DNA of 63,207 bases, filler included, from Dugesia japonica (Eukaryota): assembly GCA_001938525.1 (NCBI GenBank). It is 6 parts of 6 records of this genome, joined end to end, with 100 filler letters (N's around TTAATTAATTAA, not from the genome) between each part and the next. Parts side by side here need not be neighbours in the genome. Positions count along the whole stretch, not along the records: positions 1 to 10,716 come from MQRL01277772.1; 5 more parts are not named here. The stretch is one strand, 5' to 3'. Numbering within the stretch: the stretch's first letter is position 1; every line of letters begins with the position of its first letter. The position numbers and the translations under genes are program-made. The notes beneath the pieces are model-generated. The model saw only the letters and a list, made by a program, of their open reading frames with translations. It was not told the DNA's origin and searched no databases. This document shows positions 6,611-54,304 of this stretch, piece after piece.

Positions 6611-6874
6611 ATGAATTTACAAAGAAGTCAACCATTCCTTACATCATTAATACATTCTCCAACTATGAAGAGAATGAAAATTTTGCAAGTATTTCCATCA
6701 TTTGTTATTGATGATTTACTCGAGATTATTGTAAATATTGTTCTTGGAAATGTAACTTTAGGCAAAGAGCAAAGAAAAGCATTTGAAAAACATGGAAATT
6801 CATTGTTGTCAATTGTTAATACCAAGAATAAGAAAATAATGAAAAAAGTACTCTATGAACCTGGTGTTTATTAA
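6611..6874 (+). CDS. Polinton/Maverick conserved small protein (EIIVNIVLGNV family), truncated
   Basis: Pattern LEIIVNIVLGNVTL..EQRKAFEKH is typical of a small Maverick ORF; homologs at 49400-49665 (-) and 54305-54627 (+). Confidence 0.65.
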   Translation: MNLQRSQPFLTSLIHSPTMKRMKILQVFPSFVIDDLLEIIVNIVLGNVTLGKEQRKAFEKHGNSLLSIVNTKNKKIMKKVLYEPGVY

Positions 6875-6899
6875 CTTAAAGAAATATCTAGTAAATTCA

Positions 6900-7330
6900 A
6901 AGATCATGAAATTTAAATTGTTTCAGATCTTTCAACAACAAAATGTACTTTAACAAAATAACATTTCTTCAAGTTTAATAAAAAATATTTTTTTCATATT
7001 ATCTTAGGTTTTTTACCTAAAGAATACTTACCAGGAAAATATTATTCAGAAAATAAAGTTGATATTTTAACAATTAATATGATAAATATAACTTGTAATT
7101 TAGTTAAAGGTAATTATATCAACAACTCTCCAATTTATTTATTATATTCTTTTCCTGTAAATACTGTAGGTTTTTGTTATAAAAGTGGAGAAAGACCTTC
7201 AACTCCTATTTAATCAAGATTAAACTCCAAATGTATTGATTCTTTAACATTTAATATTATAGATGAAAATAATAATCCTATAGATTTTGATGGTGAAACT
7301 TTTTCTTTATAAGTTCATATAAGAAAATGT
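6900..7330 (+). pseudogene. Polinton minor capsid (penton-like) protein, C-terminal half
   Basis: INMINITCNLVKGNYIN..LLYSFPVNTVGF...ERPST..IDSLTFNIIDENNNPIDFDGE; closely parallels 17710-18144. Confidence 0.7.
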
Positions 7331-7520
7331 CTAACTTAATATTAGATTTTCTAAAACCTTTTGAAATAAATACTAAAACTAATTTTGATTTATATTGTAT
7401 TGCAGATTTTTTAAATTTAGATGTTGAAATTTTAATAAAAGATGAGATACCAGATGAGAAAGTCATTGGGTTGCTTTTTAATGTGGTTATTATTTTGATT
7501 CATATGGATTAAAACCTTTG
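7327..7520 (+). pseudogene. Adenain-like cysteine protease, internally deleted
   Basis: N-terminus nearly matches the 17674 ORF (TNFDLY.IADFL); HWVA and YFDSYG occur in shifted frames. Confidence 0.7.
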
Positions 7521-7599: not shown

Positions 7600-8150
7600 T
7601 CAAGATCTCAAGTCTAAATTATCAAATTTAAGAATAGTAGATTTTGAATCAGATTTATATTTATTGATGATAAAATTAATGATTATAAAAATTTTATAAA
7701 AGATGATCAAGGTTAGATACTTCAATAAGATTAACAGAAATATTTATTGGAACAATTGTTGGAATAACTGAAACTGTTTAAAATTTCTTTAGGAACTTTT
7801 GGAATAGGAACAAATTTAATTCCTATCATCTTAACTACAACAGTTTCTTGTATTCTTATAATCAGAACTTTAAATTCATCCTTAATTTAAATCAAAAAAT
7901 AAGAAATATCAAAAATTAATTCACGAATTAGAAACCGTTAAAATAAATTATTTTTATTTCAACAAAAAGCTTTATCTGATGATATACTAACTGATGATGA
8001 AATTTCTACAAGTAAAAATATGGTAAAAAAAATTAAAGAATTTATTTCACATGAAAATAAAAAAGATTTACAAGTTAAAATTGATATTTTAAAAAAACCT
8101 GAAAATCAAATTATTGAACAACAGAAAGTAATTGATAAATTAAAGAAATA
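7600..8150 (+). pseudogene. Decayed Maverick membrane-associated ORF (hydrophobic segment followed by KALSDDILTDDE)
   Basis: A hydrophobic stretch plus KALxDxxxxxxE resembles a recurrent Maverick/adintovirus ORF; many stops. Confidence 0.35.
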
Positions 8151-8349: not shown

Positions 8350-10716
8350 ACATTTTAATTTTTCTTTTAATTTATCCAACCTTAAATGCCATTGTGTATG
8401 GACTTTACAATAGAATTTATTTGTGGCCAAGTTCTTACACCGTTATCTTGAATTAATCTTTTATCCTCGTAACCAGTTAAAACTATTTTTTTGTTCAACC
8501 AATTCATCTTCCTGTTTAAGGGATTTTAAACTATGATTAGTTCCATAAATTATTTCTTTCTGATTATTTAAAACTTTATCATATTCTTTCATTCCTATTT
8601 TATTAATTTTTGAAACTCCTTTGTGTTTAGTTTCTATATTTTTGTTGCAATCTTCAATTATATTACTCTTTGCTTTTATAAAATTACATTTAGTTATTTC
8701 TGAATCTGGTTTCTCATCTTTCATTTTGAAATAATTCATTACCAAGTCAACTTTCAACTTTNGCTAAATTTTCTTGTCCAATTATTTCTACAAATACAGA
8801 GTCTGTATCACTATTATGAATTTGTATTTATTTGGAATTTTATTTTCTTACTGATTATAAATAAAATCATAAATTAATTTTGCATTTTCCAAAATAGTAA
8901 AACCTATATATCGAAATTTATTATATTTCAAATTGGTTTTTCTCATGTGCATAGCAGCTGACTCTGTTTCACCTGTTTCTTTATAACTAAATATTTCACT
9001 AGATCTGAAATTTATTTTTTATGCAAACTTCTGATAATCTCTATCTGTATCTATAATTTCTACATTGCATCTCTTTCTAATATTTTCTAAAGTTTTTCTA
9101 TAAAATGCATAAATCATTAATTTATAAATGTAATCACCAAAAACATTGCTATTTCTATTTGCTTTTCTATGAATTTTTTTTATTTTCATTCCTAAAGATT
9201 TTTATAAATCTAAAGTACTTCCTAGAATAATATAATTTTGTTTGTCAAATTGATTTAGAGTTAATTTAGGATTTTTCTTGCTCAACTTTTTCTGAAATGA
9301 TAATTGATAAAAAGCTAACATTTCTTCAGTTATATTAATTCTATCTGGTGCTAAAGGAAAGTATTTTGTCTTTTCATAAACTTCTGGTGGATATTCCAAA
9401 TCAACTTCATAAATATAATTCATTTTGTCTGTTGATTGAGTATAAGTTAAGTCTTTGTATTCTTAAGTTTCACCTGTTGGTAAAAGCTATGTCATACAAG
9501 ATGCATCTAATGAATTGTCATCTAAATATTTTATAAATGTATCTTCAAAATAATCAAGTGGAATTTCCTCATTTGAATTCATCATTTTTATTAAATCATC
9601 AAATTGGGCTTTATTTACTTGTTTAGTGTATGGATTTTTATTATTGTTATGGCTAAATACTTGTCTCTCACCACAAACATCTGAAAATCCACATCTAATT
9701 CCTTTTTCTATTTTTAATAAAATATCATAAGTTTCTTTTTTGCATATTTTAATTTTACATTTGCATAATTCATACCTGTTATCCAACTATATCCTGGTGC
9801 AGAATATAAATAACATGGATCTAATTGAAGTATATTATTTAAACATTTATCTCTAAAGTTTCCAAAAAATTTGCTAGAATAATTACATCTAATTTCATGT
9901 AATGTAACATGTATTCGAATAAATTATTAAAATTATTTCCACCTTTGGCTTGAGCTCCGCGAAAATCTTGTAAAAATTCATTATAATCTTGGTAAGTTAT
10001 TTTGTGTTGTTTTAATGTATTTAAAAAATCTTCTTTTGTTGGAATATTATTTGATTTTAATTAACTAATCACCTCATTTATATTTTTTCCTTTTACATAT
10101 TCACAAGGAAATGATATTCTCTTTGGTTCCAAATTAAAAAATTTCAAATGATTATATTTTTTAGATTGTAATAATAATTTACCCATTATTTCAATTGATA
10201 TAATAGAACCTAATCTTGCTGAATCTAAAAATTGAATATTTTCATATTGAAATTAAATGTAAACTTCTTCTGTATGAGAAATTATTTTTTTTAACTTTAC
10301 TTGATTATTTTGCTAATAATTCTTTGAAAAGAAAATTATTAAATGATGCATTGTGAAAGTAAAATGGAATAAATAAATACTTTATAGATTTATCTTGTAA
10401 ATTACACTTTGAATGAGCATAACCTCTAAATTCTCCATTGAAATGATCATGATCAATTACTGGATTTGCAGTTGAAATTATATTTTTTTCACAATATCTA
10501 CATTTATTTTGACTTTGAGCTTGCTCACCTTTTCTAAGATCAGGAACTTCACTCAAAAACCTTGTTATTAATTTATTTTCTTTTATATCCTTTAAGTTCA
10601 ATTTTTATAGAGTTGGTTACTTCAAATACATTTATTTTCCAGTCATTTAATTTTTTTAAAATTTTCAATATTTATTGGAAATTTAATTCCGTTTGTTTTA
10701 AATTCATTTAAATAAG
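8350..10716 (-). pseudogene. Polinton protein-primed family B DNA polymerase with EndoVII-like domain, intein-free
   Basis: CRYC...DHDHFNGEFRGYAHSKCNL (EndoVII-like), motif A YLDDNSL, motif B KLMIYAFYRKTLENIRKR, motif C IHNSDTDSVFVEI, C-terminal DKRLIQDNGVRTWP; several frameshifts and stops. Confidence 0.92.
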
Positions 10717-10816
10717 NNNNNNNNNNNNNNNNNNNNNNNNNNNNNNNNNNNNNNNNNNNNTTAATTAATTAANNNNNNNNNNNNNNNNNNNNNNNNNNNN
10801 NNNNNNNNNNNNNNNN
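10717..10816. other. Artificial scaffold-joining spacer (44N-TTAATTAATTAA-44N)
   Basis: Six-frame-stop linker; repeated with cores at 21788, 33082, 42445 and 53434. Confidence 0.97.
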
Positions 10817-11719
10817 AACTCAAGTGTTAATTTTTATGGAACCAAATAACAAAATAGAAGATTCTGAGGAAACTACTTACAGAGGACATTTGCATAACTT
10901 ATTTTGAGTGGTGGACAGTGATACATCTTGGCTATGCTGAATTTTGAATAGTAGAAATAGATGTTGTTCAAATATAAATGAGATAAAAGACATTATTGAT
11001 GTGTTTAGGTAATCTTCAAAGGTAATCCTGAAATATAATATTTCAATAATAAAACAAAACCCTTTGACCTTAATTTTAAATTTACAAAGTTAAATTAGGT
11101 ATCATTCTATGTATATATACATTCAGAATAAATATTTGCATATTTTGTAACTAAGTCTTTCGGGGAACAACTTATGATTCATAGCTTCATATTGTTAATC
11201 TCATTTCACATTTAATACTCTTAATTTTAGAGTCTAAACTCTACCAGACAATCAAATAAACACAGAAAACTTTGCCACTCATTGGGTTGCCAGTTAACAT
11301 TGCTCCAATGTACTGCTAATTTTTTAGCAAAAAAAAATTGGCACAGTGGAAAANNNNNNNNNNNNNNNNNNNNNNNNNNNNNNNNNNNNNNNNNNNNNNN
11401 NNNNNNNNNNNNNNNNNNGCACTATCTACCTACTGAAGTAGATTAGAAAACTGTAAATATTTATATATAGAAATTTAAATCAGGTCTAGTAATAATCAAT
11501 ATCGTTTTTAATGTTAAAGATGATCGATTAAATAAAAGATTTTCTTATTAACTAAAATTGTGAATAAAGAAAAAATTTAAGTGTTAAAATACATTTTTGT
11601 TTAAGTTATTATAATACGACCTCTAGATAATGGTGCATGAAATGCATGTTAGACATTATTTACTATATGAATTTCAGTTGGAAAGAAAATCAGTGGATGC
11701 AGCTAAATTTATTTGCTAT

Positions 11720-12430
11720 GCACTTGGTAAAGACGTTAGCAATCGTAAATGCCAAGAAAAAGATATATATGTCCATAATAGATAAATTTAGCAGATACAT
11801 ATGCTTAACAGCCCTAGTTAAACAAGATGAGGAATCAATAAAGAAAACGATTATGGATAAATGGATACTAAAATTCGGTGCTCCAAAAGAGATACATGAA
11901 TATTGTAGAAAGGTCTGCGAATCGAAAGCCTTCAAAGAAATGACAGATTCAATGAATATAACGATTTGCTTTTCAAGTCCCTATCATCATAATAAAAACG
12001 GAATAGTTGAACGTCAATTCAGAATGATCAAAGATTATATCAATGCAACATTAAAAGATAAAAAAATAAAAATTAGGCAGTGTTAATACCAGAAATAGAA
12101 TATACTCTAAATGCAACAAGCCAGAAGACTTTGGGCATATGTCCAGCAGAAGTGATATTCGGTAAGAAGATACATAGAGNACGATGGTTCAATAATGGAG
12201 AAAAGAAGGAAGAATCTGAATAGTTGACACCAACAAACAGTCGTTTTCAAGTTGGAGACGAGGTGCTAATCAAGGCAAAAACCCGATCAAAAGACAAAGA
12301 AAAGACATACATGTCTGTATGAGGTGATAAAACATATTTATGAAAGACGATACCTGCTGAAGAGTTCAGAAGGCAAGATGATTGAAAGAAATGTGGAAAA
12401 AATTAAAAAATGTTTAAAGAGGGGGATGTA
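11720..12430 (+). mobile_element. Ty3/Gypsy integrase fragment with polypurine tract and start of 3' LTR
   Basis: IIDKFSRY...WILKFGAPKEIH...SSPYHHNKNGIVERQFR; PPT AAAGAGGGGGA followed by TGTAAG at 12427. Confidence 0.9.
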
Positions 12431-15800: not shown

Positions 15801-15969
15801 GCGCGAGTGAAATCTAAACATGTCAAATTAAAAATATCCTTTTCGCGCAAAAAAAATGTGCGAGACTTTTAAGAGGAAACATGAAAGAGGAATAATATAA
15901 AATGTAAAATGTTAAATGGAAAATCTAACTCCTTTTAGTGGGTGTATGATTAAATTATTTCTTTAGAAA

Positions 15970-16530
15970 ATGAGTGCTATAATAAGATGTGAAAACTGTG
16001 GAAAGGTGTTTAAGAATTTAGGAGGTAAAATGGGACATGCAAGATCTCGAACTTGTAATAGAAATGAAATAGTATTTCAATGTGAAAAATGTCGTTGAAC
16101 ATTTAGAACAGAAAATGGTTTACGAGAACATTTAAATTCATCAGTTTGTGGAAATTCAATTAATGTACCATTAAAATGTGAGATTTGTAATAAAACATTT
16201 ACAAGACAAAATCTNNNNNNNNNNNNNNNNNNNNNNNNNNNNNNNNNNNNNNNNNNNNNNNNNNTTTTATTTAGAGAATTACCACAAGAAGAAGCAATTG
16301 ATTATAATCCAGAAATTAGAGATATTTTTAGAATGTACAAAGATTATGAAATTGAATATTTTAAAGAAAGTAAAGTGGTAATGAGAAAAAATGTGGAACC
16401 AATTATTAGAGATATTAAAACATTTCAAAATCAAGTTAAAGAAATTATTACAAAGTATTTTAGATATGGAAAAAAGATTTTTATAAGTATGCCAGTAAAA
16501 TGTAGATATACAAAAGATATAAAAAAATTC
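15970..16530 (+). pseudogene. Truncated ORF with tandem zinc fingers, probably a pPolB N-terminus
   Basis: MSAIIRCENCGKVFKNLGGKMGH...FQCEKCR*TFRTENGLREHL...LKCEICNKTFTRQN. Polinton pPolBs often begin with C2H2-type fingers. Confidence 0.6.
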
Positions 16531-17228
16531 AATTCAATTCTATCAATATATATTTTATGTTGTCTTGATGTTACTCTTTCAATTTCTTCAGTTAATTTAA
16601 AAATTATAGGTTTAAATTTTTCTATATCTAATTTAATTTTATCAATATAAGCCATATGATTGTCAAAAGTTTTCTTATTTAAATCTTTATGTAAAATCTT
16701 AATTTTAGTGTATAATATTTCAATTTCTTTTTTAATTTTTTTAGGTAAATCATCATCAACTAATCTTTTAAAATTAATTAATAAATCACTTCTTTTAAAT
16801 GGAAAACCTTCTAACCTAATTGTTTTAATCTCAGAATCTATTTTATCAAATGTTTCTTGATTACACTTCTTTGTTAAATTTTTAATTTTCTCATTTATAC
16901 TTTTAACATTAACATTCAAATCTTATAATTCATCAGCCTTAGATTGTAAATAAAGTTTGTTAGATGTAAAATTATCAATCTTTAATATTTTAATAAAAAT
17001 TAATTCATGTTTTTCTATTTTATTTTCTAATTGTTTAATGTATTGTAAATTAACTGCATCATGTAAATCTTTAGGCTCTTCTGTTATTTTTAAACATGTT
17101 ATTGTGTCACCTGTTTCATCTACAAATTTATTTTCATTTGTTGCATCTGACATTCTAATTTTAGCATCAACATGTTTTAATACTTGTGAATTATTTACAT
17201 TGAATATACTTTCTCCAAACTTATTCAT
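16431..17228 (-). pseudogene. Fibre-like/coiled-coil Maverick protein (two in-frame ORFs split by one TAA)
   Basis: MNKFG start; FVDETGDTIT...EPKDLHDAVNLQY resembles a tail-fibre-type motif; ORFs 16923-17228 and 16431-16919 share a frame. Confidence 0.5.
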
Positions 17229-17674
17229 TGTCCTTTTATTAATCTTAAATTATCATATAAAATTTTCATCTCTGAAATTATTTCATCAAATTTGACATGA
17301 GACATTTTATATAAATAATAAATACACAAGATACCACAAATTTTAGTATCAAAATGTTGAACTTGAATTTTATTTTATTTCGTGGTGACTCTTGCGAGTC
17401 TTTCTAAAGATTTTAAACCAAAAGAGTCAAAATAGACTGCTTTGGTTTGTGCTTTGCCGTAATAACCGTTGGTGTAACAAACCCAATGTGTTCCTTTTTG
17501 ATTTGTATTTTGATAATTAAAAATATAATTTTTTCTGGAACCCTGAAAGATTCCTGGTATTTCATTTTTCAAATAAATTTCTAAATCCATTTGTAAAAAG
17601 TCTGCAATTGAATATAAATCAAAATTTGTTGTTGTGTTAATTCCAAATGTTTTCAAGAAATCAATCAATGACAT
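17225..17674 (-). pseudogene. Adenain-like (adenovirus-type) cysteine protease
   Basis: GTHWVCY...YFDSFG; after one in-frame TAA, QVQHFDTKICGILC supplies the oxyanion Gln and catalytic Cys. Confidence 0.9.
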
Positions 17675-17709
17675 TTTCTTAAATCTAAAAAATGGGTCAC
17701 GCCGTGGCT

Positions 17710-18460
17710 CTATAATTGATATTTTCTTAAATGAACTAAAATAGAAATCATCTCTTGGTTAAAATCAATTCTGTTAAAATTTTCATCCACAATGTTAAAT
17801 TTTATAATATCAATATATTTTGTATTAATTTTAGAATAAATTGTTACAGATGGTCTTTCAAGAATTTTAAATCCAAAAAGAACTGTGTTAATTGGAAATG
17901 AATACAATAAATTTATTTGTTTGGTATTTCCTTCTGGAGATTTTACATAATTACCTTTAACAATATTACAAGTTATATTTATCATGTTAATAAGTGTAAT
18001 GTAAAATTCTTTTTCTGAATAATTTTTTCCTGTTTGATAAGGTTTTACTTCAAAACCTAACATTTTATGAAAAAAAGATTTATCATCAAAAGTTAAAATG
18101 TTTTCTGTTTTCATATTACATTTTGTGGTTGAAGTGTCGGGCAAAACTTCTATTCCATATTTTTCTAATTTATTTGATATTTATTTTATTTCATATGCAC
18201 CAGGTTCAATTTTATTTTCTCCATGTTCAATTTTAATTTTCTTTGCAACAGGTTCAATTTTATTTGCAACAGGTACAATTTTATTTGCAACAGGTACATG
18301 TTAAATTTATTATTTAAATCTGTTATGTTAAAAATAATATTGTAACATGTAAAACAAATTAATCCAAGTTCATACTCTAAATCTAATTCTATAGGAAATT
18401 TTAAATCTAATTTTAAATCCTGTTCTTTTCCAACTACTAAGAATTGATGTGATATTCTTT
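17710..18460 (-). pseudogene. Polinton minor capsid (penton-like) protein
   Basis: N-terminus LKFPIELDLEYELGLICFTCYNIIFNI..NNKF..IEPGAYEI; C-terminus ITCNIVKGNY..LLYSFP..IKFNIVDENFNRIDFNQEMISILVHLR. Confidence 0.8.
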
Positions 18461-18549
18461 TCTTAAGAGAAATATTTAGATTTATATTTTTTATAAATCT
18501 TATCAGATATTAAACCCTTCACCTTTAATTTTTTACATATTGTTTTAAT

Positions 18550-19473
18550 TTATTCATGTAAATTATGATGTCCTGATTTTGCTGCTGAAATTAATAATGT
18601 TAACTTTTCAAATAAACCTATTATTCCTTTTCCTTCAGCTTTGTTTTTTGGTCTACCTATTTTAGATTTTAATATTTCTCTTAAAAATTTACAGTATTCA
18701 TCATCAATAGTTTCTTTTACCATTTTTAAATAAATCTCAATAAAATATTTTATTGTTTTATTTTTCTTTATATTCCCTTTATTTCCTAAAATTATATGCA
18801 CTAAAATAACATTATACGCATGAGTTTCTTCACCGATAACAAAATATTTAAGATTTCCCCTTTTATATAAAAATAACTCTTCATCATTTCCTGAAAATTT
18901 TATTGTTATGAATTTTTTATCAGGTTCTCCTTTAGTAGCAACATTTGTAAAAAATATTTTTGGTGTTGNNNNNNNNNNNNNNNNNNNNNNNNNNNNNNNN
19001 NNNNNNNNNNNNNNNNNNTCAGGTTCTCCTTTAGTAGCAACATTTGTAAAAAATATTTTTGGTGTTGTTAATTCTGTTAATGCATTTTCATTTATTTTTA
19101 AATCATCCTTGAAAGAAATTGGTTGTATTTCATCTTTCCTTAATATTTCAATTTTTTTATCTTCATCTTTAATAGGTTCATCTTTAATTTTTTCAATTTC
19201 CTTTTGAATAGGATCATTAAAAACGGTTGGAATATTTGAAGTAAATGTTGGTTTAATTTGATTTTGATTTTGGCTTCGGGTTAATGCCGAAATTAATGGT
19301 TGTTGTAAAATTGATAATTCACTTTGTAAGTTTCTTGTTTGAATATTATTTTTACAGAAAAAATTATTATATTCTTCTTGAGCCGCAATTTGTTTTCTTA
19401 TTTCTATAATTCTTTTTTCAACTTGTTTCGTATTCATCTTCTTCTTCTTCTTCAGTATCTTCTTCTTCTTCAC
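18550..19473 (-). CDS. Maverick conserved core-like protein
   Basis: C-terminal GKGIIGLFEKLTLLISAAKSGHHNLHE matches the recurrent Maverick (R/K)LxLLxxxxxAG(N/H) motif; contains an assembly gap with duplicated flanks. Confidence 0.55.
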   Translation of the reverse strand: MKKKKILKKKKKMNTKQVEKRIIEIRKQIAAQEEYNNFFCKNNIQTRNLQSELSILQQPLISALTRSQNQNQIKPTFTSNIPTVFNDPIQKEIEKIKDEPIKDEDKKIEILRKDEIQPISFKDDLKINENALTELTTPKIFFTNVATKGEPXXXXXXXXXXXXXXXXXXTPKIFFTNVATKGEPDKKFITIKFSGNDEELFLYKRGNLKYFVIGEETHAYNVILVHIILGNKGNIKKNKTIKYFIEIYLKMVKETIDDEYCKFLREILKSKIGRPKNKAEGKGIIGLFEKLTLLISAAKSGHHNLHE

Positions 19474-19499
19474 TATTTTCTATATAATTATTTTGACTT

Positions 19500-19945
19500 A
19501 CTCCTTTCCAAGGGTTTAAATATAAACCTTTTCCTTTGTGAACTACACGAATTCCTTCTTTAAATTTTTTTGTTACACCTTTTAATTTAGGATTAATATT
19601 TTTTAAATATTTATGAATTGCAGAACCTTGCCATGGATTTAAATATAAAACTTCTCCTTTGTTTTCAAGTTATTCGGTTTCTTTTTGTGTTTTAATTGCT
19701 TCTCTAGAACTTGCCACGGTTGATGCAACTCCAGATGCAATGCTTGCAGCTCCAGATAATGCTCCAATAATTTCAGGAATTGCAGCAAGAAATGCAAATC
19801 CTCCCTCTTTTGGTTGCTTTTTAATTTCATCTTTTACTTTTTTACTAATATAATAATTTTTACCATCAATCTTTACAGATTTACATTTCTTTGAATTTAT
19901 TATCTTTTCTAATTCTTCTTCTGTTGGATTCGTTGCACTCGTCAT
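19500..19945 (-). pseudogene. pX/Mu-like adenain substrate with amphipathic helix
   Basis: EGGFAFLAAIPEIIGALSGAASIASGVASTV resembles adenovirus pX (GGFLPALIPIIAAAIGA); continues past a stop into GEVLYLNPW. Confidence 0.7.
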
Positions 19946-19948
19946 TTT

Positions 19949-21743
19949 CTATATTAAAAATATACATGTTAATGTTTTATTTATTAAGTGCAATCTTAAA
20001 TGCCAAATTTGACAATTTTCACATTCAAACTTATTTCCATGTGGCCAGGTTTTTGCAGCATTATCTTCAATAATTCTTTTATCATCATATCCCATTAATG
20101 CAATCTTTTTTTGTTTTACAATTTCAATTTCGTGTAAGTTGGATGTTAAAGAATAATTTGTTCCATAAATTATTTTACTAGGATTTTTTAAAACTTCATC
20201 AAAATCTTTCATTAATAATTTATTATTTCTTTTAACACCTTTATTTCTTAAATCAAATATTGTTTGATTTCTGTCAATATTACCCAGAGGGACCCATGAA
20301 TATCCATAAGAATTTGCTTTTATAAAATCTCCTTGAATTATTTCAGATTCAGGAATTTCATCTTTCATCTGAAATGATTCATTTCCTAGTAAGCTTTCTA
20401 ATTTTATTAAATTATCTCTACCTTTTATCTCTATAAAGATACAATCGGTATTTTTTATAATTAATGGAAATTCACAATTAAATGATCCATCTTCGGTTTC
20501 AATATCATAAACATCTTCAATGCCTTTTCTTAAGAATCTAACTGTTTGCACATTAGTTGAAATTTCTGATTTTGTTTGCATTGCACTAAAACAATTTGGT
20601 TTATCTTTTCTTTCTGAAACAACTAAATTAATTCCTAAAGATGTTGTTAAATAATACAACTGTGTAAAAAATTCTTTTCCTTTTTGTGTAAAACCAATTG
20701 TTTTATAACTATTTTTTCCATTGAAACTTTTAGTTCCATCTGCTGCATAAAATCATGTAAAGAATCAACATCTAACATCAAATGATGCATTTAAAATATA
20801 TTCAGGAATTTATTTAGTTCTTTCAAATTCATTATAATAATTTTTAGAATAATACTTTGCATGTTTTATAGGATTTTGTAAATGAAGTTTATAAACATGC
20901 GATGATTTCATTGTATCGTATATCATTGTTTCTTTATTATAAACTTCTTTATGAAAGCTTTTTATTTTATTTAATAAATATAAATCTTGATTATTAAATG
21001 TACAACAATATCTTACTCCTGATTTATAATTATAAATTCCTGCTGATCCATTTCCAAGAAAGAAACCATCTATAAAAGCCGCCTTTAATTTTAAATCATT
21101 AGGTTCATTCTCATAAATATCAGATAAAATTTTATAAACATTTATTTCATTATTTGCTTCAAATAATTTATTGTGAAGTAATTTCGTTTCATTTGTTAAA
21201 TCTGTTGGTTTTGATTTGTTCACCTTTATCATTTAATAATGAATGATCTTGTGTTACATCTACAATTCCCATTTTAGTTCTTACTCTNTAAATCTTTTTA
21301 TTTGTNGTNTGNTTAATTACTTTATTTAATTTNACCCANTTACTTTTNGTCCATATTTCATAATTCTCTGGATAAGAATAATATTTTCCATCAAAGTTTT
21401 TTGTATAAGATTGATCTATTTCTGAAATCTTTTTTATTTAAACTTTATTATTTTTTCGTAGTATTATTGGAGTGTCAGATGTTACACTATCTGAATAATG
21501 AATTTTATAATTATTTTATCCAATTAAAGGTTGCATTTGTTCATATATAAAATTATACATTACTTGTTTTGCATGTTCAAGTATTGTGAATCTTATATAA
21601 GGAAATTTATTATATTTTAATTTTCCTTTTACCATATGCATTGCTGCAACATTGGCTTCGTTATTATCGTTTGTTGTGAAGATTTTACTTGATTTAAAAT
21701 TTATTTTAGATGCGAACTTTTGATAATCTCTGTCATTATCTAC
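19949..21743 (-). pseudogene. Polinton protein-primed PolB C-terminal half interrupted by an intein
   Basis: N-extein ..AAMHMVKGKLKYNKFPYIRFTILEHAK..KIHYSD; C-extein TDCIFIEIKG...KKIALMGYDDKRIIEDNAAKTWPHG. Highly similar to the pPolB at 8350-9100. Confidence 0.93.
20450..21488 (-). mobile_element. Intein with LAGLIDADG homing endonuclease (~346 aa) in PolB motif C
   Basis: Block A SVTSDTPIILR, block B GIVDVTQDHSLL, block C DGFFLGNGS, block E FYAADG, block F VYDIETEDGSF, block G IIKN|T. This copy has one +1 frameshift near 21210 and four stops. Confidence 0.93.
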
Positions 21744-22807
21744 NNNNNNNNNNNNNNNNNNNNNNNNNNNNNNNNNNNNNNNNNNNNTTAATTAATTAAN
21801 NNNNNNNNNNNNNNNNNNNNNNNNNNNNNNNNNNNNNNNNNNNGATGAAGTAATGCCTGACACAAGTACAAATACGGATATGATTGATGAGGAAATGATT
21901 GATTTACACTCTTTATGTAAAGTTCTCTATCAGATAGTAAATTGCATTGATTATAAAAATGTTAACTTTCTGTCTATAATAAGATGTGTACTTTTCATGT
22001 TTTTTGACCAAACCATAAGATATTATTTGATAATGTAAATTAATAAATAGTAGGTTTGTACGGGATAAATAAAACAAAAAACTCAGATTTACTCGGAGTT
22101 TCAATTTTAAAGGTCAGTTTTTGACATTTTTTTCTATTTAAAAGAGAACTATGAGAAATAGAGCAATGAAGTAATTATAGTAAATGTTTGTCTTAAAGAT
22201 TCCAATTGATACATGCATCATGATGATCGACTAAATGGATTGCTAAAATTAATTCTTTTGCCGGTCCTCTTTCCTTTGCCTGGTAATGACACTAACTTCT
22301 ATATGGTCACTTGTTCGATTTTGTATTTCAAAATTAGACATTATCAAAGTTTATTAAAATTAAATAAATCAATAATGTTTAAACAAATATGTTTAAATAT
22401 TATATCTAACAATATTTAAATATATTTCCTAGATAGGTTGGTCATTTTAAAAATTACATTTTTATAGTAAATTAATTATTAATCCAGAAAATGAGGATAA
22501 TAAATGTTTCTTTCGGTGTTCGTTAAAATCTTTTGAAACGATGGCATATATTTAATAAATCATTTCAAACATCATTTTAAAATAGATTTTATTACTTCAT
22601 GTTTTGACAGATTAGATTTCATTGTCAGTCAAAATTTTTAATCGAAATATAGAGCTTATTAAAGTACTAATAATATAATCAATTGCATTATCTCGTTAAC
22701 AAATCAAATTAATTTAAAATATTTAATAAAGATTTTTATGGATGCACTGCATATTTGACTTGGTAATCAAAACGTTTGTCTATTTTTCAAATTTGAGTTG
22801 TTCACCC

Positions 22808-23908
22808 TAAAATTGAATGCAAAGAGATTACTCAAGTACTCATAGACCAAGCAATAACAAGAGATATATCAGGGAGACATAGAATTTGCCCATATCCAAA
22901 ATTTAAGTTCAAGGAAAAGATAATAAATCTGGACGAACACAAAGAATTACTCTATACGTCATATTATGTGTGAAAAGTGTAAAGCACTAATATTTAAGCT
23001 TGACAATGAAGAAAACTTTAGAGAATCAATTCCCATGACATAAGTAGTATTTTAAAATTGTAACCGATTAATTCATTTGAACCCCGGGAAAATACAAATA
23101 TATCAAGAACTCATAGTCAAATGACCTAAGAGTTAGTAAAAGTGAGTATCCGTAGATTAGCATGCAATGAAAAACTCAATTAATGTTCATACCTATGTAA
23201 ATTCAAAGGAACCCGGATGTAAGTAAATGAACATATGTTCGACAAAGTAAAGAAATATGCAGGCTGTCACTTCCAATTTAGAACAGAGAATGGACCAACT
23301 GGAAGAAAATCTAAAGAATTATACTATCCAATTGATAAACGACTTATGCATAAAAATTCACAAAACAGAAAACAAATTATGGAGAGCTTTTAAAGAGAAA
23401 CCACATCAAACAACCCTATCTATGCCTACAACTACCCCAGATATCAAGTACTCGGTATTTCCTTACATATTATAAGTAGAAGTGTTTGCAGCCAAACTCG
23501 CTATTGCAAGTAATTACCAGACGAAAAGGATGGGCGTTGTACCAGCCCACCATTCAACTTATTTAAAGAAGGTTATATTGCGTCTCTCAGATTTTATCCT
23601 CATGAGGATGGGGCAGGAAACGGAAATTACCCAAGTGTTTTTTTTATAATCAGAAAAGGAAAATATTAGGATAAACTAAAATGGCCCATGTCAAACAATT
23701 TCAATATTAGAATAATCCCGGGATACAACAAAGGGTCTGAGGGACACGAAGAAACATTTAAAGGAAAATAAAACAAGATCTCCTATTAGAAACCTACATC
23801 TGATATGAACTTGGCTCAGGATGCTCAACATTCCTACAAATTAAAAAGCTGCTATCAGACTTCGTACAAAATGTTAGCATATTCATTGAGATAAGAAAAG
23901 CGAATTAG
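22808..23908 (+). pseudogene. Intronless TRAF-like pseudogene (zinc-finger remnants, coiled coil, MATH domain)
   Basis: MATH: SPPFNLFKEGYIASLRFYPHEDGAGNGNYPSVFFIIRKGKY*DKLKWP...KPTSDMNLA..FVQNVSIFIEI. Upstream DQAITRDI..ICPYP and CKFKGTR..NEHM; coiled coil at 23257-23400. Confidence 0.8.
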
Positions 23909-24839
23909 ATAAGTTTAATAGATGAGTAAATAGAGTTGTAAATTGTAAAAATTAAAAAAGTTTTAAAAATACAATGACTGTAAAAGTAGTAAATATCGAA
24001 TAAAAATACCAAATATATATATATATATAACGAAAATGAAGTTGCAAATGAAGTTACTAATTGCAAATTTGTGCTAAGTAACCTCGTTATCCGGAAGATA
24101 AAAGAAATTAGAGTCGAGATTCGAGAATCGACTAGAGATGAAATCTAATAAATTTAAATTGCTTTTAAGAAATTATTAAACACATCAACAAAACGGTATA
24201 ATGATCTAGCTAATATCAAATTATTAAACAAATTAAATGAATTATCAAAGAAGAATTAAGCGAGTTAATAGTTAGAGTTGTCAAACGCAAATAATTAATC
24301 GAATTAATAATTGATAATATATTGTTAAGCAAATCCATAATCAAATAAAGTGTCGAATTATTAAACGAGTTTACACTTTACCAAATCATGAAACTATGAA
24401 TCGACAAGGTATTATAATGATAATCAGTTTATCATTACTATTGATATAAATTATTAAGCGAACTAATAATGTTNNNNNNNNNNNNNNNNNNNNNNNNNNN
24501 NNNNNNNNNNNNNNNNTAATCGATTTAATAATTATTCATAATAAATAATCATAACAAATGATAATCTCTTTATCATTTAGTTGCAGAAATTATCAAACAA
24601 TGAATTCGTGCTATGAGAACAGGCAAGACGAAATAAATTATATGCAGAAGAGCCCTTACGAGAAGAGAGCTTAAAAAGAACCTCTTGTAGTAAAATACAA
24701 CACCATAGAGATTAAACAATCAAACAGTCTGGCCCAGAAGTGAAAATTAGAGTAAGTAACTACAAAAACCAGAAATTATTTATTAATAAAGATAATAAAT
24801 GATCAAAGAAACCAGATAGAAGACAAAAAATCAAAGCAA

Positions 24840-25505
24840 ATGAGTGCTCATGTAGTGTTTTCCTGACTGAAGAGGAAATTATCCGAACTCAGATAAGTAA
24901 AGCATGCTAACAGAAACATCATTAAAAAATCCAAACATTGGAAAAAAATGGCTATTCTTAGGGGTTGCAATAAAAACCAAGCTGTGAATACCAACAAAAG
25001 AAAGTATCAGGTGGAAGACCTCAAAACAAAGTTGAAGGCGGCTAAAGAAAAACTAAGTTGACAAAAGTCTAGTACTGACCAATTAAAGAACGCAAAAATG
25101 GAAATATTTGAGATGCAAATGGAAACGGATATCCAAAGTAAAATGATAACTGCAACCGAAGAAAATAAAAGGCTAGATGCTATAGTAGCTCGCCAAATTA
25201 TGCAGAGTTCCACCAAAAACTTACGAAAAAATATCAAGCTAAACAAACAACTCGAAGAGATTAAAGAATGGTGCAATAGAAGAGAAATGGATATCCAGAT
25301 GCAGAACAGAAAAATCAAGGATCTATCACATAAAGGAGCAAACTTAATGAGGGAGCTGCATGAAAAAGAGGAGGAAATAAGGTATCTCGAATACCTTCAA
25401 GATTCATTATATCAAACAATCAAACAGCTTCCAGACAGTTTAACAACTAGTCAGGATGATTATCATCAATCCAATCTACCCATCCATCAAACAACCGCTA
25501 TTTAA
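24840..25505 (+). pseudogene. Decayed coiled-coil ORF of unknown family
   Basis: Heptad-rich 135-aa ORF extends upstream through in-frame stops. Confidence 0.4.
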
Positions 25506-26430
25506 TGTATCTACTATGGAAAAACGTTCGTTTAAAACTTATATTATCTGACTAAAAACAAAAAACATTGAGAATTATACATATGCTTGTATTTATATAT
25601 TTTTCTTAACCTTACCTTGCTTAATCATAATTCCTTCTATCTTACTGCATGTTATTCCTATCATTATATATTATGTAAACATTCAAATTTTACCTTTTTA
25701 TATTTTTTTTGATTGATAACTGCAGACAAAGAACAAAAGAGATCAGTCCAGTTAAAATCCCCAAAGAAAATATCATAAAAATAGATTCGGTGACCGAATC
25801 TAAGTGACCCCAGAAATAATCTGTTAGGACGAAACCCAACCAGTAAATTACAAAAAAGAACACTACAAAAAACAAAATGAAAGGAAAACATAAACATAAA
25901 TAATAAAAGCTTTATTTAACAATTAAAAAATAATAAAAATATAATGTCCTCTAATTGTCGAAATATTCCCGAATTAATGCATAAATCTACCAAGAAGCAA
26001 AATTAAATGGAATACATTTATAAAAACGAAATAGGACAATTAATAAACAATTAAAATTCCCTAGAAAGATGACCTTTTTCCAGAATATCTAGAACAATAT
26101 GAGGGAAATGATTTCGAATTTTGGTCGAGAACAGCCAATGTAAAAGCAACTTAGATGAGAAATTAGTATAACAAGGCTCAAAAAAATATAAAACTTATCC
26201 TTAACAATCTTTTCATCTGGCATAACGATCTAGGATCAACAGTTGAATTACGAGAAACAATTTGGCATCCAAGTCGAAGAGCAGATCAAAAATCATAAAA
26301 AATCAATTTAAATTGGAACAAGAAAATGCTTACGAATTCCTCAATCAGATCAATAATTAAAATGCTGAATTTTTCTGAAAATACATATTAAAATTTAAAA
26401 TAAAAATTTTTATATTCCAAACTTACATCC

Positions 26431-26986
26431 TGTAATGGACATTAAAATTGAGAAACGACATTCGCCGATCAAAAGACATCATCTTGCGGTCTCATTATCC
26501 CAGACAATTTCAAATCAAAATTTTTTATTGTTATACGATCCCCGTATGAGACAGGAAATCATATTCAAATATCTAATCGCAATTATTGTACGATCACCAT
26601 TGTGAAGCAGGAATTAATCTATCATTTAGTCGAATCGCTGCACTACAGGAATCCTATAAATAGTCGACTATTCTGAACTAGCGGATAAATTAAAATTCGC
26701 AGATTTTCCTTTAACTATGAATTTTTGTCGAAGCAATTAGATCTATTTGTTGCCACAATCAAAGTCAATTATCCAGTATCCAGTTGGATCAAATTTCTTT
26801 TCAAGTCCAACCGTAGTTATCGATCAAGTATGCTGTATCTTTATTTTATTATTTAATTATTTGTATTCCTATGTCGTTAATTAATTAATTATATGTTTTC
26901 ATACAATACAGACTTGAGTTTAAAATTTTGTTTTAAAATTTTTGTCTCACAAATAAAACTTTATAGAATTAATAAGATTATTTACA
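26431..26986 (+). repeat. Possible solo LTR
   Basis: TGTAA...TTACA ends, internal TATAAAT (~26655) and AATAAA (~26952); no target-site duplication found. Confidence 0.3.
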
Positions 26987-27196
26987 TTACTAGTTTTAGG
27001 ATTATCGGTTTACTAGCCATCAAGATTGCTATTGCTGTTTTATTATTATCTACTATCATTATTATATAATTAATATCATTGTTATCACCTCAATGGAAAT
27101 CATCGGCATTATTTACTCTNNNNNNNNNNNNNNNNNNNNNNNNNNNNNNNNNNNNNNNNNNNNNNNNNNNNNNNNNNNNNNNNNNNNNNNNNNNNN

Positions 27197-27210
27197 TATT
27201 ATTATTATTA

Positions 27211-27263
<53 letters not shown>
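27197..27263. repeat. (ATT)n microsatellite
   Basis: Direct inspection. Confidence 0.95.
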
Positions 27264-30231: not shown

Positions 30232-31921
30232 TCAATTCAAATCAGATGTTAAAATTTCCAAATTTTTCGGAGCGGGTTTAATAATGATATCAAAGTGTTT
30301 TGCTAACGCTTTCAAAGCATCCATNNNNNNNNNNNNNNNNNNNNNNNNNNNNNNNNNNNNNNNNNNNNNNNNNNNNNNNNNNNNNNNNNNNNNNNNNNNN
30401 NNNNNNTTATTGATAAATTTCTTATTGTTCAAATCGACCGGCACATCATAATTAATAACAAGATTCACTGTGTGCACATCAATACCTCTTGCCCAAACAT
30501 CTGTACAGATCAATACTCGAGTTTCCATTGATCGGAATTGTTGCATTAATCGTTCTCTTTCTTTTTGTTCGATTTTCCCATGAACACACGAAACAGTGAA
30601 TCCGTCACCACGCATTTTCTCAGTTAACCAATCAACTTTCTGTCGAGTATTAACAAATATAATCGTCTGATGAATTGTATTGTTTGCATAAAGATCTGAT
30701 AATGTACTGAATTTGTTTTCTTCATTTTGAACATTAATATAATATTGCTTCAATGTTTTCACTGATAAATCTTTGTTTTTAACTAATATTTTTACGGCAT
30801 CAGTTTGGAAATTTTCAGTTAAATCCAAACAAGCTTTCGGTAATGTAGCACTGACTATGACTACTTGGATTGCTTGAGAAATTCGACGGTATATTGCTTC
30901 CAATTGTTGATTTAAACCTTGTGCCATCATTTCATCGGCTTCGTCGATTATTAGCATAGTCAAATGTTCAGTATTCAAATGACCATGTTTAATCATATCT
31001 GAATATGAAAATATACAAAAGTAAAATTTACCATATCANNNNNNNNNNNNNNNNNNNNNNNNNNNNNNNCTTATTTATCAAGATTAATTTAACAGTAAAA
31101 TATTTATTAATTAAAAATGGGAAATCAATATATTAATTCATGTCAAATTTATTATACTACTTTTATACATAAATAGACTATGTATAATACTTGATTTATT
31201 ATGAAAAAAATTTTTAAATGTCATGAAAATTACAAAATGAATATAGTTAAAAATTTCATATATTGCGAATATTTTAAGAAATATTGGGTATTAAAATCTT
31301 AATTAAACTCAATCAATAAAAAGTATGTGACATTATAACAATTTCAGAACAAAGATTAGCATACCAATAACTCGCCCCGGAGTTCCTACTACTACATGTT
31401 GACCTTCTTTTAATTTTTTTGTTAAAAGTCCAACTTCTTTCCCGGTAGTTCCACCATAACAAGCCGTTCCTTTTACATTCATAAAGTCACTAAGAGAATC
31501 AAAAACTGTACATATTTGTTGTGCTAATTCTCGAGTTGGAGCTAAAACNAAGGCTTGTGTATGCGGTGCATCAGATTTATTGGATAAATCCAGGCTTTGT
31601 AATATACCAATACAAAATGTTGCGGTTTTACCTGATCCTGATTTTGCTCTACATTATGTTAACAAACCACCAATTAATTAAACTCTTACTGAATTACTAC
31701 ATCATCACCGTCAATTATTGGCATAATTCCTTTTTGTTGAATGGGAGATGGATCGATAAAACCTGTTAAAAAAATTATTTCGTTAGATGTTTAAAGCAAA
31801 GCAAACCATGGTTTGTAATGCCTTTTAGTAATTCAGGTAATAATCCCATTGACTTGAATGTGGAATAACTTTTAATGTTATCTTGCTTATTAATAACTGA
31901 TTTCTTTTTAACATTGTTCAT
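30232..31921 (-). CDS. eIF4A3: eIF4A-family DEAD-box RNA helicase, most like eIF4AIII; exons 31921-31807, 31762-31690, 31648-31365, 30998-30232
   Basis: Q motif, [50 protein letters not shown] introns of 44 and 41 bp restore the frame; motif VI falls in a gap. Paralog assignment rests on the VWARG signature. Confidence 0.85.
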
Positions 31922-37999: not shown

Positions 38000-38220
38000 T
38001 GTTAGCCGCTGTTATACTTTCTGCAGTTTCCATCTATAAATATTTATTAATAAGTTACAATTAAGTCTAGTGAAACATTTATTCTAACAAAATAGCAATA
38101 TTAAAACAATTAATTGTTTTAATTATTATTTTTTTATCGAAATTTCTTCAATTATTATGCAATAAAATTTTATGAAACTTTTCATAAAATTTTTATGTAT
38201 AATATTAAAACATTCTAACA
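38000..38220 (-). repeat. 221-bp 3' LTR of a Gypsy element
   Basis: TGTTAG...CTAACA inverted termini; preceded on the minus strand by PPT GAAAGAAAGGGGA (38221-38233). Confidence 0.8.
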
Positions 38221-50492: not shown

Positions 50493-51489
50493 TATAGTAG
50501 TTGAAAAAATAATCATAAATTTCATAGAAGTCTATAATTCCTTCAAAATCATATTTTAGAAAGTAAATCTAAAAATGACTAGAAGTCACTACATATTTTA
50601 TTAAATTGGATAGAAGTCATAAATTAATTTATGAAATTATATAAAAGTATCAAAACATTTTTTTGAAATTTACATGATGTATTAATACGCAATTTGTTGC
50701 ATTACATACATAGTATGTGTACAATACACGTGTTAAAATCGGGCAATATGAATTCTACTGNCATGACATTCTTATATTATTCAAGGAACAGATTACATAG
50801 AAGTTATTGATTTATTGTTAAATAGGTATGAATTTTCACATCTTTGTCACCAATTTTCACATCTTAATGTAAAAATTGGAAATTTATACACAAGATGTGA
50901 AAATTCACACTTTTTAAATAAAAAATTACCTTAGGTGCTAAATTTCACACTTCAATTGACCTCAAATTATTTTCTTTGTTTGAATTAACAATAAAAAATT
51001 TTACACATTATGTATTTTATAAAAAATTAAAAGCGATGCGCATTAGGCATTTAAGAAATTCAAAAAAGTTTATTTTACTGTTTGAATTGACATGATAAAC
51101 TTATTTAACATAATTTTTATGTGAATTTTCAGACCTCATTGTAAACAATGATTTTATTTATCGACATGTAAATTTTCTCAAATTATTTATTATTATTATA
51201 ATTATTATTATTATAACTATTATTATTATTATTACTATTATTAATATTATAAAAACCTTATTATTAAAAAACATTATTATTACTATTCTTTTAACAATAA
51301 AATAGAAATTCAATAAATAAAATACAAGTCTTTAGAAATATTTATTTCAATCATAATAAAAAAAACATATTTCATTGTCAAATAGGCTTTCCTTCTCTGT
51401 AACAATCTAAATGCAGTAATGGAATTGGTTGACATCGAAACAAAATAACGATTATTTATTTGATCATGGCCATAGGCCATACTCTTATT

Positions 51490-52300
51490 TTTTCCTTCCA
51501 AAAGAGCTTATCGTCCATATATTATAACGCGTATTTCTTAGTTTCTATTGTATAAGTCTGATGATTAAGTGACCTGAATNNNNNNNNNNNNNNNNNNNNN
51601 NNTTCTTCTGCGTCGGTATAGACGACCAAATAGTCATCATGGCGAATATAAGTTTGTTTCAAACCAACTCTTATAGCCTGCATAGTTGTGCTGCCATCTT
51701 CCTTATTCATGCTTTAGCATTTAGGTCTTAAAAATACCCATTTCAGATAATCTTTTCCTTGACCCTCATTTTTAAATGACCCCATTTTGTTGGTTACATT
51801 ACTAGAGTATAATGGGTGATCCTTTGAAAAGTTTCTTATATTCAGCAGACCATTAAACTTAATTTCTCTCAAGAGTNCGTCTTTGTCCACTCCAGTGCAT
51901 GACAAGAAAATGCTATCTGTGTCACCTGTAATATGGATTTTACAACCAAATTGATTTCGATATTTTCCAACTCTTCACTGTAACTTGTACATGCGTAGCT
52001 TGGTAAGATCCAGCATCGTCTGTCTAATGTAACTTGNCCTATCAAGACATATACAATCCTTCTTCACTGCTTGATAATAATTACTTTTGGTATAATTCTT
52101 CCAACTGATCTTCCGCTATAAACTCAAAGTCTCTATATGTTAAAGGCTGTTTTAAGGCCGAACCGTATAGATTATTTATATCGATATATAGCAGTGAGGT
52201 ATTCTCATCTACCCGAACGTAATGTGTATTTACAAATGTCATGCCACCTCTAATTCCTGATAAAAATAACCGATGCATTCCTGGGTCCTGTAGAGTAGGT
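51490..52300 (-). pseudogene. Third Polinton pPolB fragment (divergent family), intein-free, motif B region deleted
   Basis: SGIRGGMTFV, motif A YIDINNLYG, motif C ITGDTDSIF, DHPLYSS..MGSFKNE, FLRPKC, FRSLNHQTYTIETKKYAL..DDK. Confidence 0.88.
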
Positions 52301-54304
52301 AGATATATCCCCCCCGATGAGTCACAGCCCCACCCATTTTTAGCCTCGCCCACTTTTCTTTGGCCATGCTCACTTTTTTAGGCCACGCACAATTTTTTTT
52401 GACTACATCTTTTTGAAAAAAAAATTTTTTTAAAATTTTTTTTCAATTTTGTTTTAAATTTTTTAAAACTTTTTTATTTGATGAGTAATACTTTTTGTTT
52501 GAACAAGGACCTCCTACCCACTACCCAAACTCTCTAACCCCTTCCTCCAGACATTTAGAATTTTTTTTGATGAGTGATACTTTTTTTTGAAAAGACATCA
52601 TAAAATCGAAAATCATCTATACATAACCTAAAAGACTTAAAGGCAAAAATGCTTTCTTTATATAGAAAAGTGAAGTACAATAGAGTAGTTATGTCAGCAG
52701 TAAACCACCTAAAATCACCACTTTTAAAATAAAGACTAAATCAAGTACATACACGCTATGATGACAACCTTGGTATTGTTGAACATAACTGCTATCTCGA
52801 AATTTTAATCTGATGTATTGGTGTCGAGTTATTAAATTTTTGAAATGTTAATTTTTAAAAAGCGCGCACAGACTCAAATTTGATACTATCAAATAGAGAA
52901 TTAAAGTCTACCTATACATTGTCTTAAAGATAAGTATGATAAAATGCATACGAGAAAATCAAATAAGAAAGAACAAAGGACTTTTAAAATTTTTATATAG
53001 GAACCTGTAAAGATACAACAATCTATGTATAGTGTGTTGATATCCGATATCGGTTCCAAAGACATGAATACATTGAATTTATTAGTACAAAGAATTGAAC
53101 CAACGATTACAATTAAGGATACAGTTTTCATCAATTACAATGAATTAAAATTGATTGTATTCGAAAATTCCCAACAATATATGATCCAGGTGGAAATACA
53201 AGGATTCAAGAAAAATGGAGACAACATTAACTCAATTAATACAAAAGTTATTATAATAAATGTTATTTATTTATTTGACTTTTTTTTAATTAACTATATA
53301 TAAATCACAATATTTATAAAGATTGAGAAAAGCATTCAGCAGACCAATCTCAAGAATGAGAGATATCCAAGAAATGATGGCTTACGAAANNNNNNNNNNN
53401 NNNNNNNNNNNNNNNNNNNNNNNNNNNNNNNNNTTAATTAATTAANNNNNNNNNNNNNNNNNNNNNNNNNNNNNNNNNNNNNNNNNNNNAAATTAAAGTA
53501 GGTTAGGTGAATGTGGTGTGTGTGTAAGAGGAAAATTAGACTCGAGGGAGGTGTGGAGATCTTGGGTTTTTATTTTTTGTAGATTTTATGATATAGACGT
53601 GTTGGAATGAAATTACTGTCTATACATTGACTAAAAAACTTATGAAGTAGAATGGATGGTTTGGTCTACAAGGGGTGGTGGTGCACTAGCACAGCGTATT
53701 GAATCTTTTAAGTGGTATAGGGTTGTTGGAAGTTAATGGATTTTGGTGGGTGATGGCTGGTTGAAAAGGTGATGTGATGGGGAGTATGATGGTGTAGGGG
53801 TGGTAGTGAGTTGAAAAATATTTGTTTGATAATTTGATTGGTTAATTTGTTTAAGCAGTATAATGAAATTAAAAATGTTTTCCTTCAGAGGAAACTGGTA
53901 TGGGTGTAAAGGTAATTAATCATTGTTGATTTTAAGATTTAAATAAATTTTTGTTTTCTGTGGGGTGTGGGTGGCGTAATAATGTTTAGAAAAAGGTTGA
54001 TTTTTAAAAAAATTTTGAATCCATTGAAAATGATGTTTTATGAAAAATATATTTTTGAGCAGATTTGATATTTATGTATGGGATTACTGATAGCGTTTTT
54101 AAACAACGAAAAAAGCCGGCTGTGATTAAAATGAGGAAAGAATCATAAAAAAATCAAATAAGAAGCAATCACATAAGAAAAAATTTGAAAATAAGACAAA
54201 GCAATTAAGTATGTTTAAAAAACTGGCAAAAAGTACAGGAAATAAAATAAAAAATGACAAACGGAAAATGGATATCATTATAAACAATTAACGGGTATAT
54301 CTTT

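Follow-up and report, generated by a model that had tools for sequence, protein, structure and literature searches.

An empty motif C site and its intein-bearing counterpart

The window, by which we mean the whole stretch of 63,207 nucleotides analysed here (Dugesia japonica, assembly GCA_001938525.1), consists of six unrelated contigs joined by artificial spacers at 10717-10816, 21744-21843, 33038-33137, 42401-42500, and 53390-53489, all of the identical form N44-TTAATTAATTAA-N44. On the minus strand of the first contig, a family B DNA polymerase of the protein-primed type (pPolB) has an empty pol-c (motif C) site at 8792..8821, where IHNSD (8821-8807) directly abuts TDSVF (8806-8792) in one frame (IHNSD/TDSVF, the slash marking the junction at 8807/8806). 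The site belongs to a decayed Polinton pPolB without an intein, which tblastn with an open-frame relative traces over 8350..10668 (minus strand) and which extends to the contig end at 10716. This copy is a pseudogene: it is recovered in six tblastn pieces with changing frames and 10 stops within the pieces, the identity to L063 being 44-72% in pieces, and one frame change lies immediately upstream of IHNSD. An alternative nuclear code with TGA read as Trp was considered as the cause of the stops and rejected, as TAA/TAG stops and frame changes persist and relatives have open frames of 1,000-1,559 aa in the standard code. In sequencing run X1, possibly the source sample, a 171-nt contig spans the empty junction (8772-8942) with no differences. 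The same contig of the window holds further decayed Polinton genes on the plus strand, namely a homolog of a 225-aa ORF (6815-7327), a protease (7339-7520), and a homolog of a 241-aa ORF (7819-8130); no retroviral-type integrase was seen on it.

The occupied copy, also on the minus strand, comprises an N-extein that ends in IHYSD and is truncated by the contig end (21489..21743), an intein of full-length type running from Ser1 to Asn with a LAGLIDADG domain, now decayed (20450..21488), and a C-extein that begins with TDCIF, thus with Thr at +1 (19964..20449). The intein reads SVTSDTP...LIIKN from 21488 to 20450, with IHYSD up to 21489 and TDCIF from 20449. It is broken: its 1,039 nt are no multiple of 3, it contains a frameshift and stops, and its first LAGLIDADG motif reads GNG, with Asn replacing Asp. 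Polinton genes adjoin this copy at 16524..19924 (minus strand), comprising homologs of 192-aa, 242-aa, 225-aa, and 451-aa ORFs and a protease at 17246-17686. The N-terminal part of another pPolB, with C2H2 zinc fingers, lies at 15928-16650 on the plus strand; it faces and overlaps the end of the occupied element's genes, as a nested or adjacent second element would.

The preliminary description had set the empty junction against an intein-filled sister, and the contiguous frame in one copy and the exact intein boundaries in the other confirm this. The flank motifs DRDYQKFA, AAMHM, and KYNKF, which it had listed, lie upstream in both copies. The two polymerases align as homologs on either side of the junction, with 69% agreement upstream (170 of 245 aligned bases) and 73% downstream (312 of 429); the upstream alignment scores 243, whereas none of 30 shuffles exceeded 146. 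A third, distant pPolB fragment at 51474..52332 (minus strand) is also empty, as had been noted (ITGD/TDSIF, 51921/51920). It is 22-45% identical to public pPolBs and was not matched by tblastn with a main-family query. All three copies are decayed, and because each lies on a separate spacer-joined contig, they are not neighbours in the genome.

Elsewhere in the window, a Polinton-type integrase fragment lies on a separate contig (54869..55222, plus strand). Fragments resembling Gypsy-like LTR retroelements are found at 11631-12086, 36201-39121, 43200-43595, and 56726-57292; they represent integrase, gag zinc knuckle, protease, and reverse transcriptase, with Pfam confirmation for the integrase at 11631 only. 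One or more exons of an eIF4A3-like DEAD-box helicase, unusually divergent at 52-57% to all homologs listed, lie at 30232-31035 (minus strand) on a contig of its own (21844-33037).

Polinton/Maverick identity of the elements

Predicted domains identify the elements as Polintons/Mavericks whose pPolB includes an Endonuclease VII domain (PF02945). The protein-primed family B polymerase domain (PF03175) is above cut-off in L062, L063, and L070. Contig C529426 carries, besides a pPolB, a double jelly-roll capsid protein (PF21738, E 2e-14), a PLA2-integrase with a retroviral-type integrase domain (PF00665, 43 bits), an A32 ATPase (PF04665, E 1e-11), and a weak match to adenain-like protease (PF00770, E 0.035). 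Its terminal inverted repeats of 149 nt (88.6% inverted match) stand about 16 kb apart, with unrelated DNA outside both; a scaffold gap and simple repeats adjoin the element ends. Several of these genes have homologs beside both the empty and the occupied polymerase of the window. At L340:3130-4497, a phospholipase A2-like domain and the integrase of this Polinton family are fused in one frame.

The D. japonica assembly comprises 854 Mb in 648,594 contigs and contains 34 Wnt-family matches. In its COX1 copies, AAA stands at positions suited to Asn, and ATA reads as Ile with table 9, which indicates the flatworm/echinoderm mitochondrial code. One COX1 copy (L338, C623876:11526-12848) has 5' stops and lies on a nuclear-sized contig, and it is likely a nuclear mitochondrial insertion.

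Intein architecture and the endonuclease domain

Across an alignment of 34, the pPolB inteins keep Ser1, block B VDVT[EQ]DH, and the terminal Asn; the residue after the intein is Thr or Ser, and the penultimate residue is Lys rather than His. Three forms share the same ends: full inteins of about 347 aa, partial ones of about 303 aa, and minis of 191-211 aa; a derived linker is common to most of the mini-inteins aligned. In a sample of 50 loci that match the occupied pattern, all 14 with both intein ends are minis of 565-633 nt, as are all five in a further sample. Both LAGLIDADG motifs with their acidic residues (F[IV][DE]GFFLGDG and GFYAADG) are present in many loci and absent from minis; the first with its Asp was found at only 28 sites genome-wide, a lower bound because the pattern was strict. 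In L070, PF14528 scores 31 bits and Pfam Intein_splicing stays below cut-off. A predicted model of a mini-intein (pLDDT 85.9) gave 30 Foldseek matches at E ≤ 0.001, all of them inteins, and the pPolB insert is accordingly predicted to have a Hint fold.

In 43 endonuclease-bearing loci, the ratio of non-synonymous to synonymous changes in the endonuclease region is 0.25 for shared variants versus 0.72 for private ones; for the splicing parts, the values are 0.12-0.16 and 0.45-0.51. The contrast between shared and private variants fits selection during replication, then decay after integration. The LAGLIDADG domain shows purifying selection, yet most of the inteins are endonuclease-less minis.

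Several individual loci may be mentioned here. L062 and L078 have partial inteins of 302-305 aa in open frames with both LAGLIDADG motifs eroded, intermediate towards minis. In L080 (C587693), a scaffold gap lies between two intein N-termini spaced 245 nt apart, which probably reflects duplication during assembly. L249 (C550894) belongs to a distant pPolB subfamily with the C-extein TDSWVLNIKSNDLY; its intein is of full-length type, and it has an apparent internal assembly duplication.

Three poly-A/cDNA RNA libraries gave no sign of current element expression: on a 7.8-kb stretch, 16, 112, and 28 partly matching reads were counted, with 6-25% of each run read. When the intein stretch was compared with sequencing runs, no RNA run was among the matches listed.

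Occupancy across the genome and the subfamily of the window copy

Pattern searches built on the prefix KIHY[ST]D identify at least 514 occupied sites next to 1,115 empty ones, with no hits in reversed controls, so that occupied and empty sites do coexist among related elements, as the preliminary description had it. Occupancy is thus 32% among intact-looking sites with this prefix. Irrespective of flank, 681 intein N-termini were counted genome-wide.

The subfamily of the window's empty copy looks different. A DNA search across its junction, a search that favours empty sites, scored 40 full-span relatives at 78-87% besides the window copy. The subfamily pattern PNKYK..HY[ST]D, which is unbiased for occupancy, matches 114 empty sites; four apparent occupied matches all proved on inspection to be decayed empties, and the genome pattern search found no true occupied member. 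On a tree of N-exteins with 92 rows (47 empty and 45 occupied), the window copy falls in a starred all-empty clade of seven rows, among further empty rows and outside the intein-bearing clades, the root of the tree being midpoint only. Left out were duplicate loci of one contig and rows scored 'none', whose junctions are too decayed for the regular expression, including 18 of 30 loci from the DNA search, and, for the tree, rows with fewer than 400 upstream bases. Probably the window's subfamily was never invaded, being older, not exposed, or not recognised. Of the empty sites compared over 30 nt, 53 of 82 have three or fewer mismatches to some occupied flank.

Decoupled histories of exteins and inteins

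When intein presence is scored on the N-extein tree, empty and occupied copies are interleaved, with 21 state changes, at least 12 of them forced by starred branches; such counts do not distinguish gain from loss. One pair of sisters, L141 and L173, is empty and occupied at branch lengths of about 0.04 each. Occupancy is also clustered on the tree (21 changes versus 31 when shuffled), and a sub-lineage of the intein is particular to one clade. Both features fit vertical inheritance, as read from the tree.

Among 36 occupied copies, distances between N- and C-exteins correlate with a rho of 0.76 and those between the two intein ends with 0.53, whereas the intein correlates with the N-extein at 0.19 and with the C-extein at 0.10. 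At synonymous sites, the correlations separate weakly (0.39 for N- and C-extein, 0.25 for N-extein and intein, 0.29 for C-extein and intein). In AU tests with fast trees and 5,000 replicates, the intein alignment rejects the extein trees (deltaL 259-291) and the exteins reject the intein tree (996-1305). The exteins reject each other's tree too, less strongly (deltaL 108-127), which indicates that ordinary recombination occurs. In a tree of the N-terminal splicing region, mini- and full-length inteins are intermixed despite the linker that minis share, which points to intein-internal recombination between occupied copies. By this evidence, some of the decoupling is explained by such recombination and does not require homing.

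The window intein itself is 93% identical to the inteins of L161 and L006, with exteins that differ by 25-31%. In its three closest cross-clade pairs, synonymous third-position differences are 0.06-0.09 in the intein and 0.18-0.38 in the exteins, and similarity falls off at the junction: the first 36 bases of the intein agree at 0.75-1.0, the 9 scorable flank bases next to them at 0.56-0.78.

Related inteins in other polymerases

A mini-intein profile matched 2,041 representatives in a 50%-representative library. The best 150 of these are non-pPolB by junction context where parsed, mostly PolB with YGD/SVT and some topoisomerase II; that none of the 150 is a pPolB intein is a weak blank, as the library search missed P0001. 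In IMG/VR, the parsed loci among 80 kept of 577 qualifying ones likewise included no pPolB intein, with 64 YGD flanks, five topoisomerase-type flanks, and 11 unparsed, and many of the close matches are GVMAG giant-virus contigs. A 90% collection yielded inteins in other pPolBs (P0001, P0311, P0343, P0378, and the fragments P0306, P0307, P0323, and P0373). The same intein family is also seen in topoisomerase II of probable giant viruses (P0148, P0151, P0167, and others), where the site is an acidic D/TDG similar to motif C of the polymerases.

A quick tree unites 14 pPolB inteins in a single clade (SH-aLRT 99). When the alignment is restricted to the splicing ends, 11 PolB inteins of similar C-terminal block fall together with them (SH 97); with full-length inteins in a quick tree, nesting within giant-virus inteins is replaced by a sister position without resolution. 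Full-length identity to non-pPolB pol-c inteins is 31-40%. Taken together, these trees and alignments show the pPolB inteins as one clade allied to the pol-c inteins of giant-virus PolB.

The P0001 intein is 54% identical to the D. japonica inteins and sister to them. Its exteins are almost unalignable to the main family and 44% identical to another D. japonica pPolB family, in which four examined loci with a readable site are all empty. The presence of the intein in very distant pPolB types (P0001, L249) would be in line with homing. The cluster of P0378 holds seven occupied and six empty members among 15 listed of 136. Occupied and empty proteins listed there (1,537 and about 1,191 aa; ENA contigs up to 1 Mb) agree at about 99% of 1,041 residues in the N-extein, and their fixed differences, 10 in number, are all confined to the stretch from -7 to +44 aa around the site. 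In the P0306 cluster, an empty member has identical flanks. Closer pairs of occupied and empty sites than that of the window exist, both elsewhere in the D. japonica genome and in public clusters. Co-conversion tracts, which the preliminary description had proposed as a sign to look for, were absent from the D. japonica assembly, where the flanks of 15 pairs with similar inteins are no more alike than background; the tract in P0378 is co-conversion-like and fits a young homing event in another genome.

Discussion

We consider past homing among co-replicating elements the best explanation of these sequence patterns, with a probability of roughly 0.7. The intein occupies about a third of the sites in the sister subfamilies, and it likely spread between elements by endonuclease-driven homing. 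A single old capture may have brought an intein of giant-virus PolB into a pPolB. Because the intein parts the two halves of motif C (..D/TD..), it would have to splice out, and the splicing residues would remain under selection. The LAGLIDADG domain would then have cut empty motif C sites, with an occupied element serving as the template from which repair copied the intein, most likely during joint extrachromosomal replication of several elements. Endonuclease-less minis presumably arose and became the majority, moving by recombination and possibly also by repair of cuts made in trans. Integrated copies, the window's empty copy included, would have decayed afterwards. It is conceivable, if rather doubtful, that the roughly 4% of copies with endonuclease motifs are a shared supply from which minis spread in trans into the more than 1,100 empty sites. 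If so, the genome would contain an entire intein life cycle in the form of a population, and the intein would be a natural gene drive in an animal's virus-like transposons, common across Polinton lineages and hosts and perhaps with an endonuclease still able to cut integrated copies.

The main competitor, which we regard as unlikely, posits one ancestral gain followed by vertical inheritance, repeated precise loss, and shuffling through ordinary recombination of co-replicating elements, with the endonuclease of minor importance after capture. The intein-internal mosaicism and the mutual incongruence of the exteins speak for it, as do the lack of co-conversion within the assembly, the dominance of minis in both samples, and the clade-specific intein sub-lineage. 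However, purifying selection on an idle endonuclease would be unexpected. In addition, the exteins are linked to each other across an intein that is decoupled from them, and recombination would need paired breakpoints to produce this. The tract in P0378 and the jump between unalignable pPolB types also fit homing. Homing in the past, with recombination alongside it, remains our preferred reading for the family.

It is a different question whether the window's empty copy is itself a usable target for the window intein or its close relatives, as the preliminary description had proposed in calling it a natural homing target. The homing part of that proposal is likely at the level of the family; its application to this copy we think very unlikely. 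The site is homologous and in the same genome, and other pairs with similar inteins have flanks of about 70%, so that divergence alone is no bar to transfer. Yet the copy is a poor target because of its stops and frameshifts, its flanks that are just 69-73% identical, and its uninvaded subfamily, an all-empty clade with no true occupied site against 114 empty ones. Its 30-nt site has at least five mismatches to each of 43 occupied flanks, a frame change sits beside it, and the window's own intein is broken. The empty copy is better viewed as belonging to an uninvaded comparison group, and therein mainly lies its value.

That the elements, or the contrast between empty and occupied sites, come from a contaminant, a symbiont, or misassembly rather than from animal chromosomes is the least credible of the alternatives, although the assembly is in so many contigs and has scaffold gaps inside several inteins, and the organism labels of the runs are coded. 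Against it, there are more than 1,600 diverged and mostly decayed copies, and the DNA outside the terminal inverted repeats of one element is unrelated at either end. In three studies, DNA-type runs, all labelled organism A, contain 0.29-0.41 of the intein-stretch words, contigs of run X2 skip 602-605 nt at the intein, and the X1 contig bridges the window's empty junction. The X8 runs, labelled organism B, contain 0.13 of the intein-stretch words and gave short contigs on the empty copy; organism B is possibly a related species with related elements.

One model has homing endonucleases pass through a cycle of invasion, degeneration, and loss. The more than 1,600 alleles described here, dated by decay, are empty or have a full, a partial, or a mini intein, and with these four states the cycle becomes testable within one genome. 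The findings also point to exchange of DNA between giant viruses and Polintons and imply that several Polinton lineages replicated together.

Comparison with known systems

The elements resemble known Polintons/Mavericks (polintovirus, adintovirus-like) in combining PF03175 with PF02945, in the fusion of an rve integrase with a PLA2-like domain, and in the double jelly-roll capsid protein, the A32 ATPase, the weak adenain match, and the terminal inverted repeats. Polinton pPolBs with HNH or VSR nuclease insertions have been described (10.1101/2023.08.22.554363), and such insertions have been speculated to derive from intein invasions (PMC11071308). In the portions of these two articles available to us, the nuclease insertions are fixed domains, whereas the insert considered here is a polymorphic, complete intein of predicted Hint fold, with splicing residues, within catalytic motif C.

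We found no report of inteins spreading in Polintons in the searchable literature, which excludes Repbase Reports, InBase, subscription journals, and supplements. The accessible text of PMC12220804, PMC13768754, PMC5718144, and PMC3671162 contains no Polinton intein, the word 'intein' has zero occurrences in that of PMC8502044, PMC8097293, PMC10120064, and PMC11131425, and 'polinton', 'animal', and 'metazoa' are absent from the main text of PMC10710043 as available.

Eukaryotic inteins are recorded from fungi, algae, and Nucleocytoviricota (PMC5784728), and on nuclear scaffolds of algae and protists they occur in viral-like DNA polymerases as well (PMC10710043). With the nuclear examples covered in the consulted parts of these two sources, namely fungal VMA1 and Prp8, Anaeramoeba, and the viral-like polymerases of Klebsormidium, Tetrabaena, and Hondaea, the D. 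japonica inteins share a probable virus-borne entry into nuclear DNA, intragenomic spread, and full and mini forms. They differ in their animal host and in that a single allele recurs at least 681 times in the gene of a mobile element, not in host genes. Relative to surveys that, in the parts consulted, cover fungi, algae, protists, and giant viruses, the range of inteins thereby gains a new class of element and another kingdom of hosts.

The closest known counterparts are the pol-c inteins of giant-virus and archaeal PolB, of which the Mimivirus intein, at YGD/TDS with Ser, Asn, and Thr at its splice junctions, is an example (PMC549080, as far as its available text describes them). Common to both are the position in motif C, Ser1, the terminal Asn, Thr+1, the Thr/His of block B, the LAGLIDADG domain, and a length of about 350 aa (PMC549080, same portion). 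Unlike those inteins, the ones described here lie in a protein-primed PolB of Polintons with the flank HY[ST]D/TD[SC], in hundreds of integrated copies; they have a penultimate Lys and the C-terminal sequence FNCGFPLIIKN, and their empty, full, partial, and mini alleles occur together in one genome. A pol-c intein in Polinton polymerases, polymorphic within an animal genome, is thus an extension of a known kind of intein.
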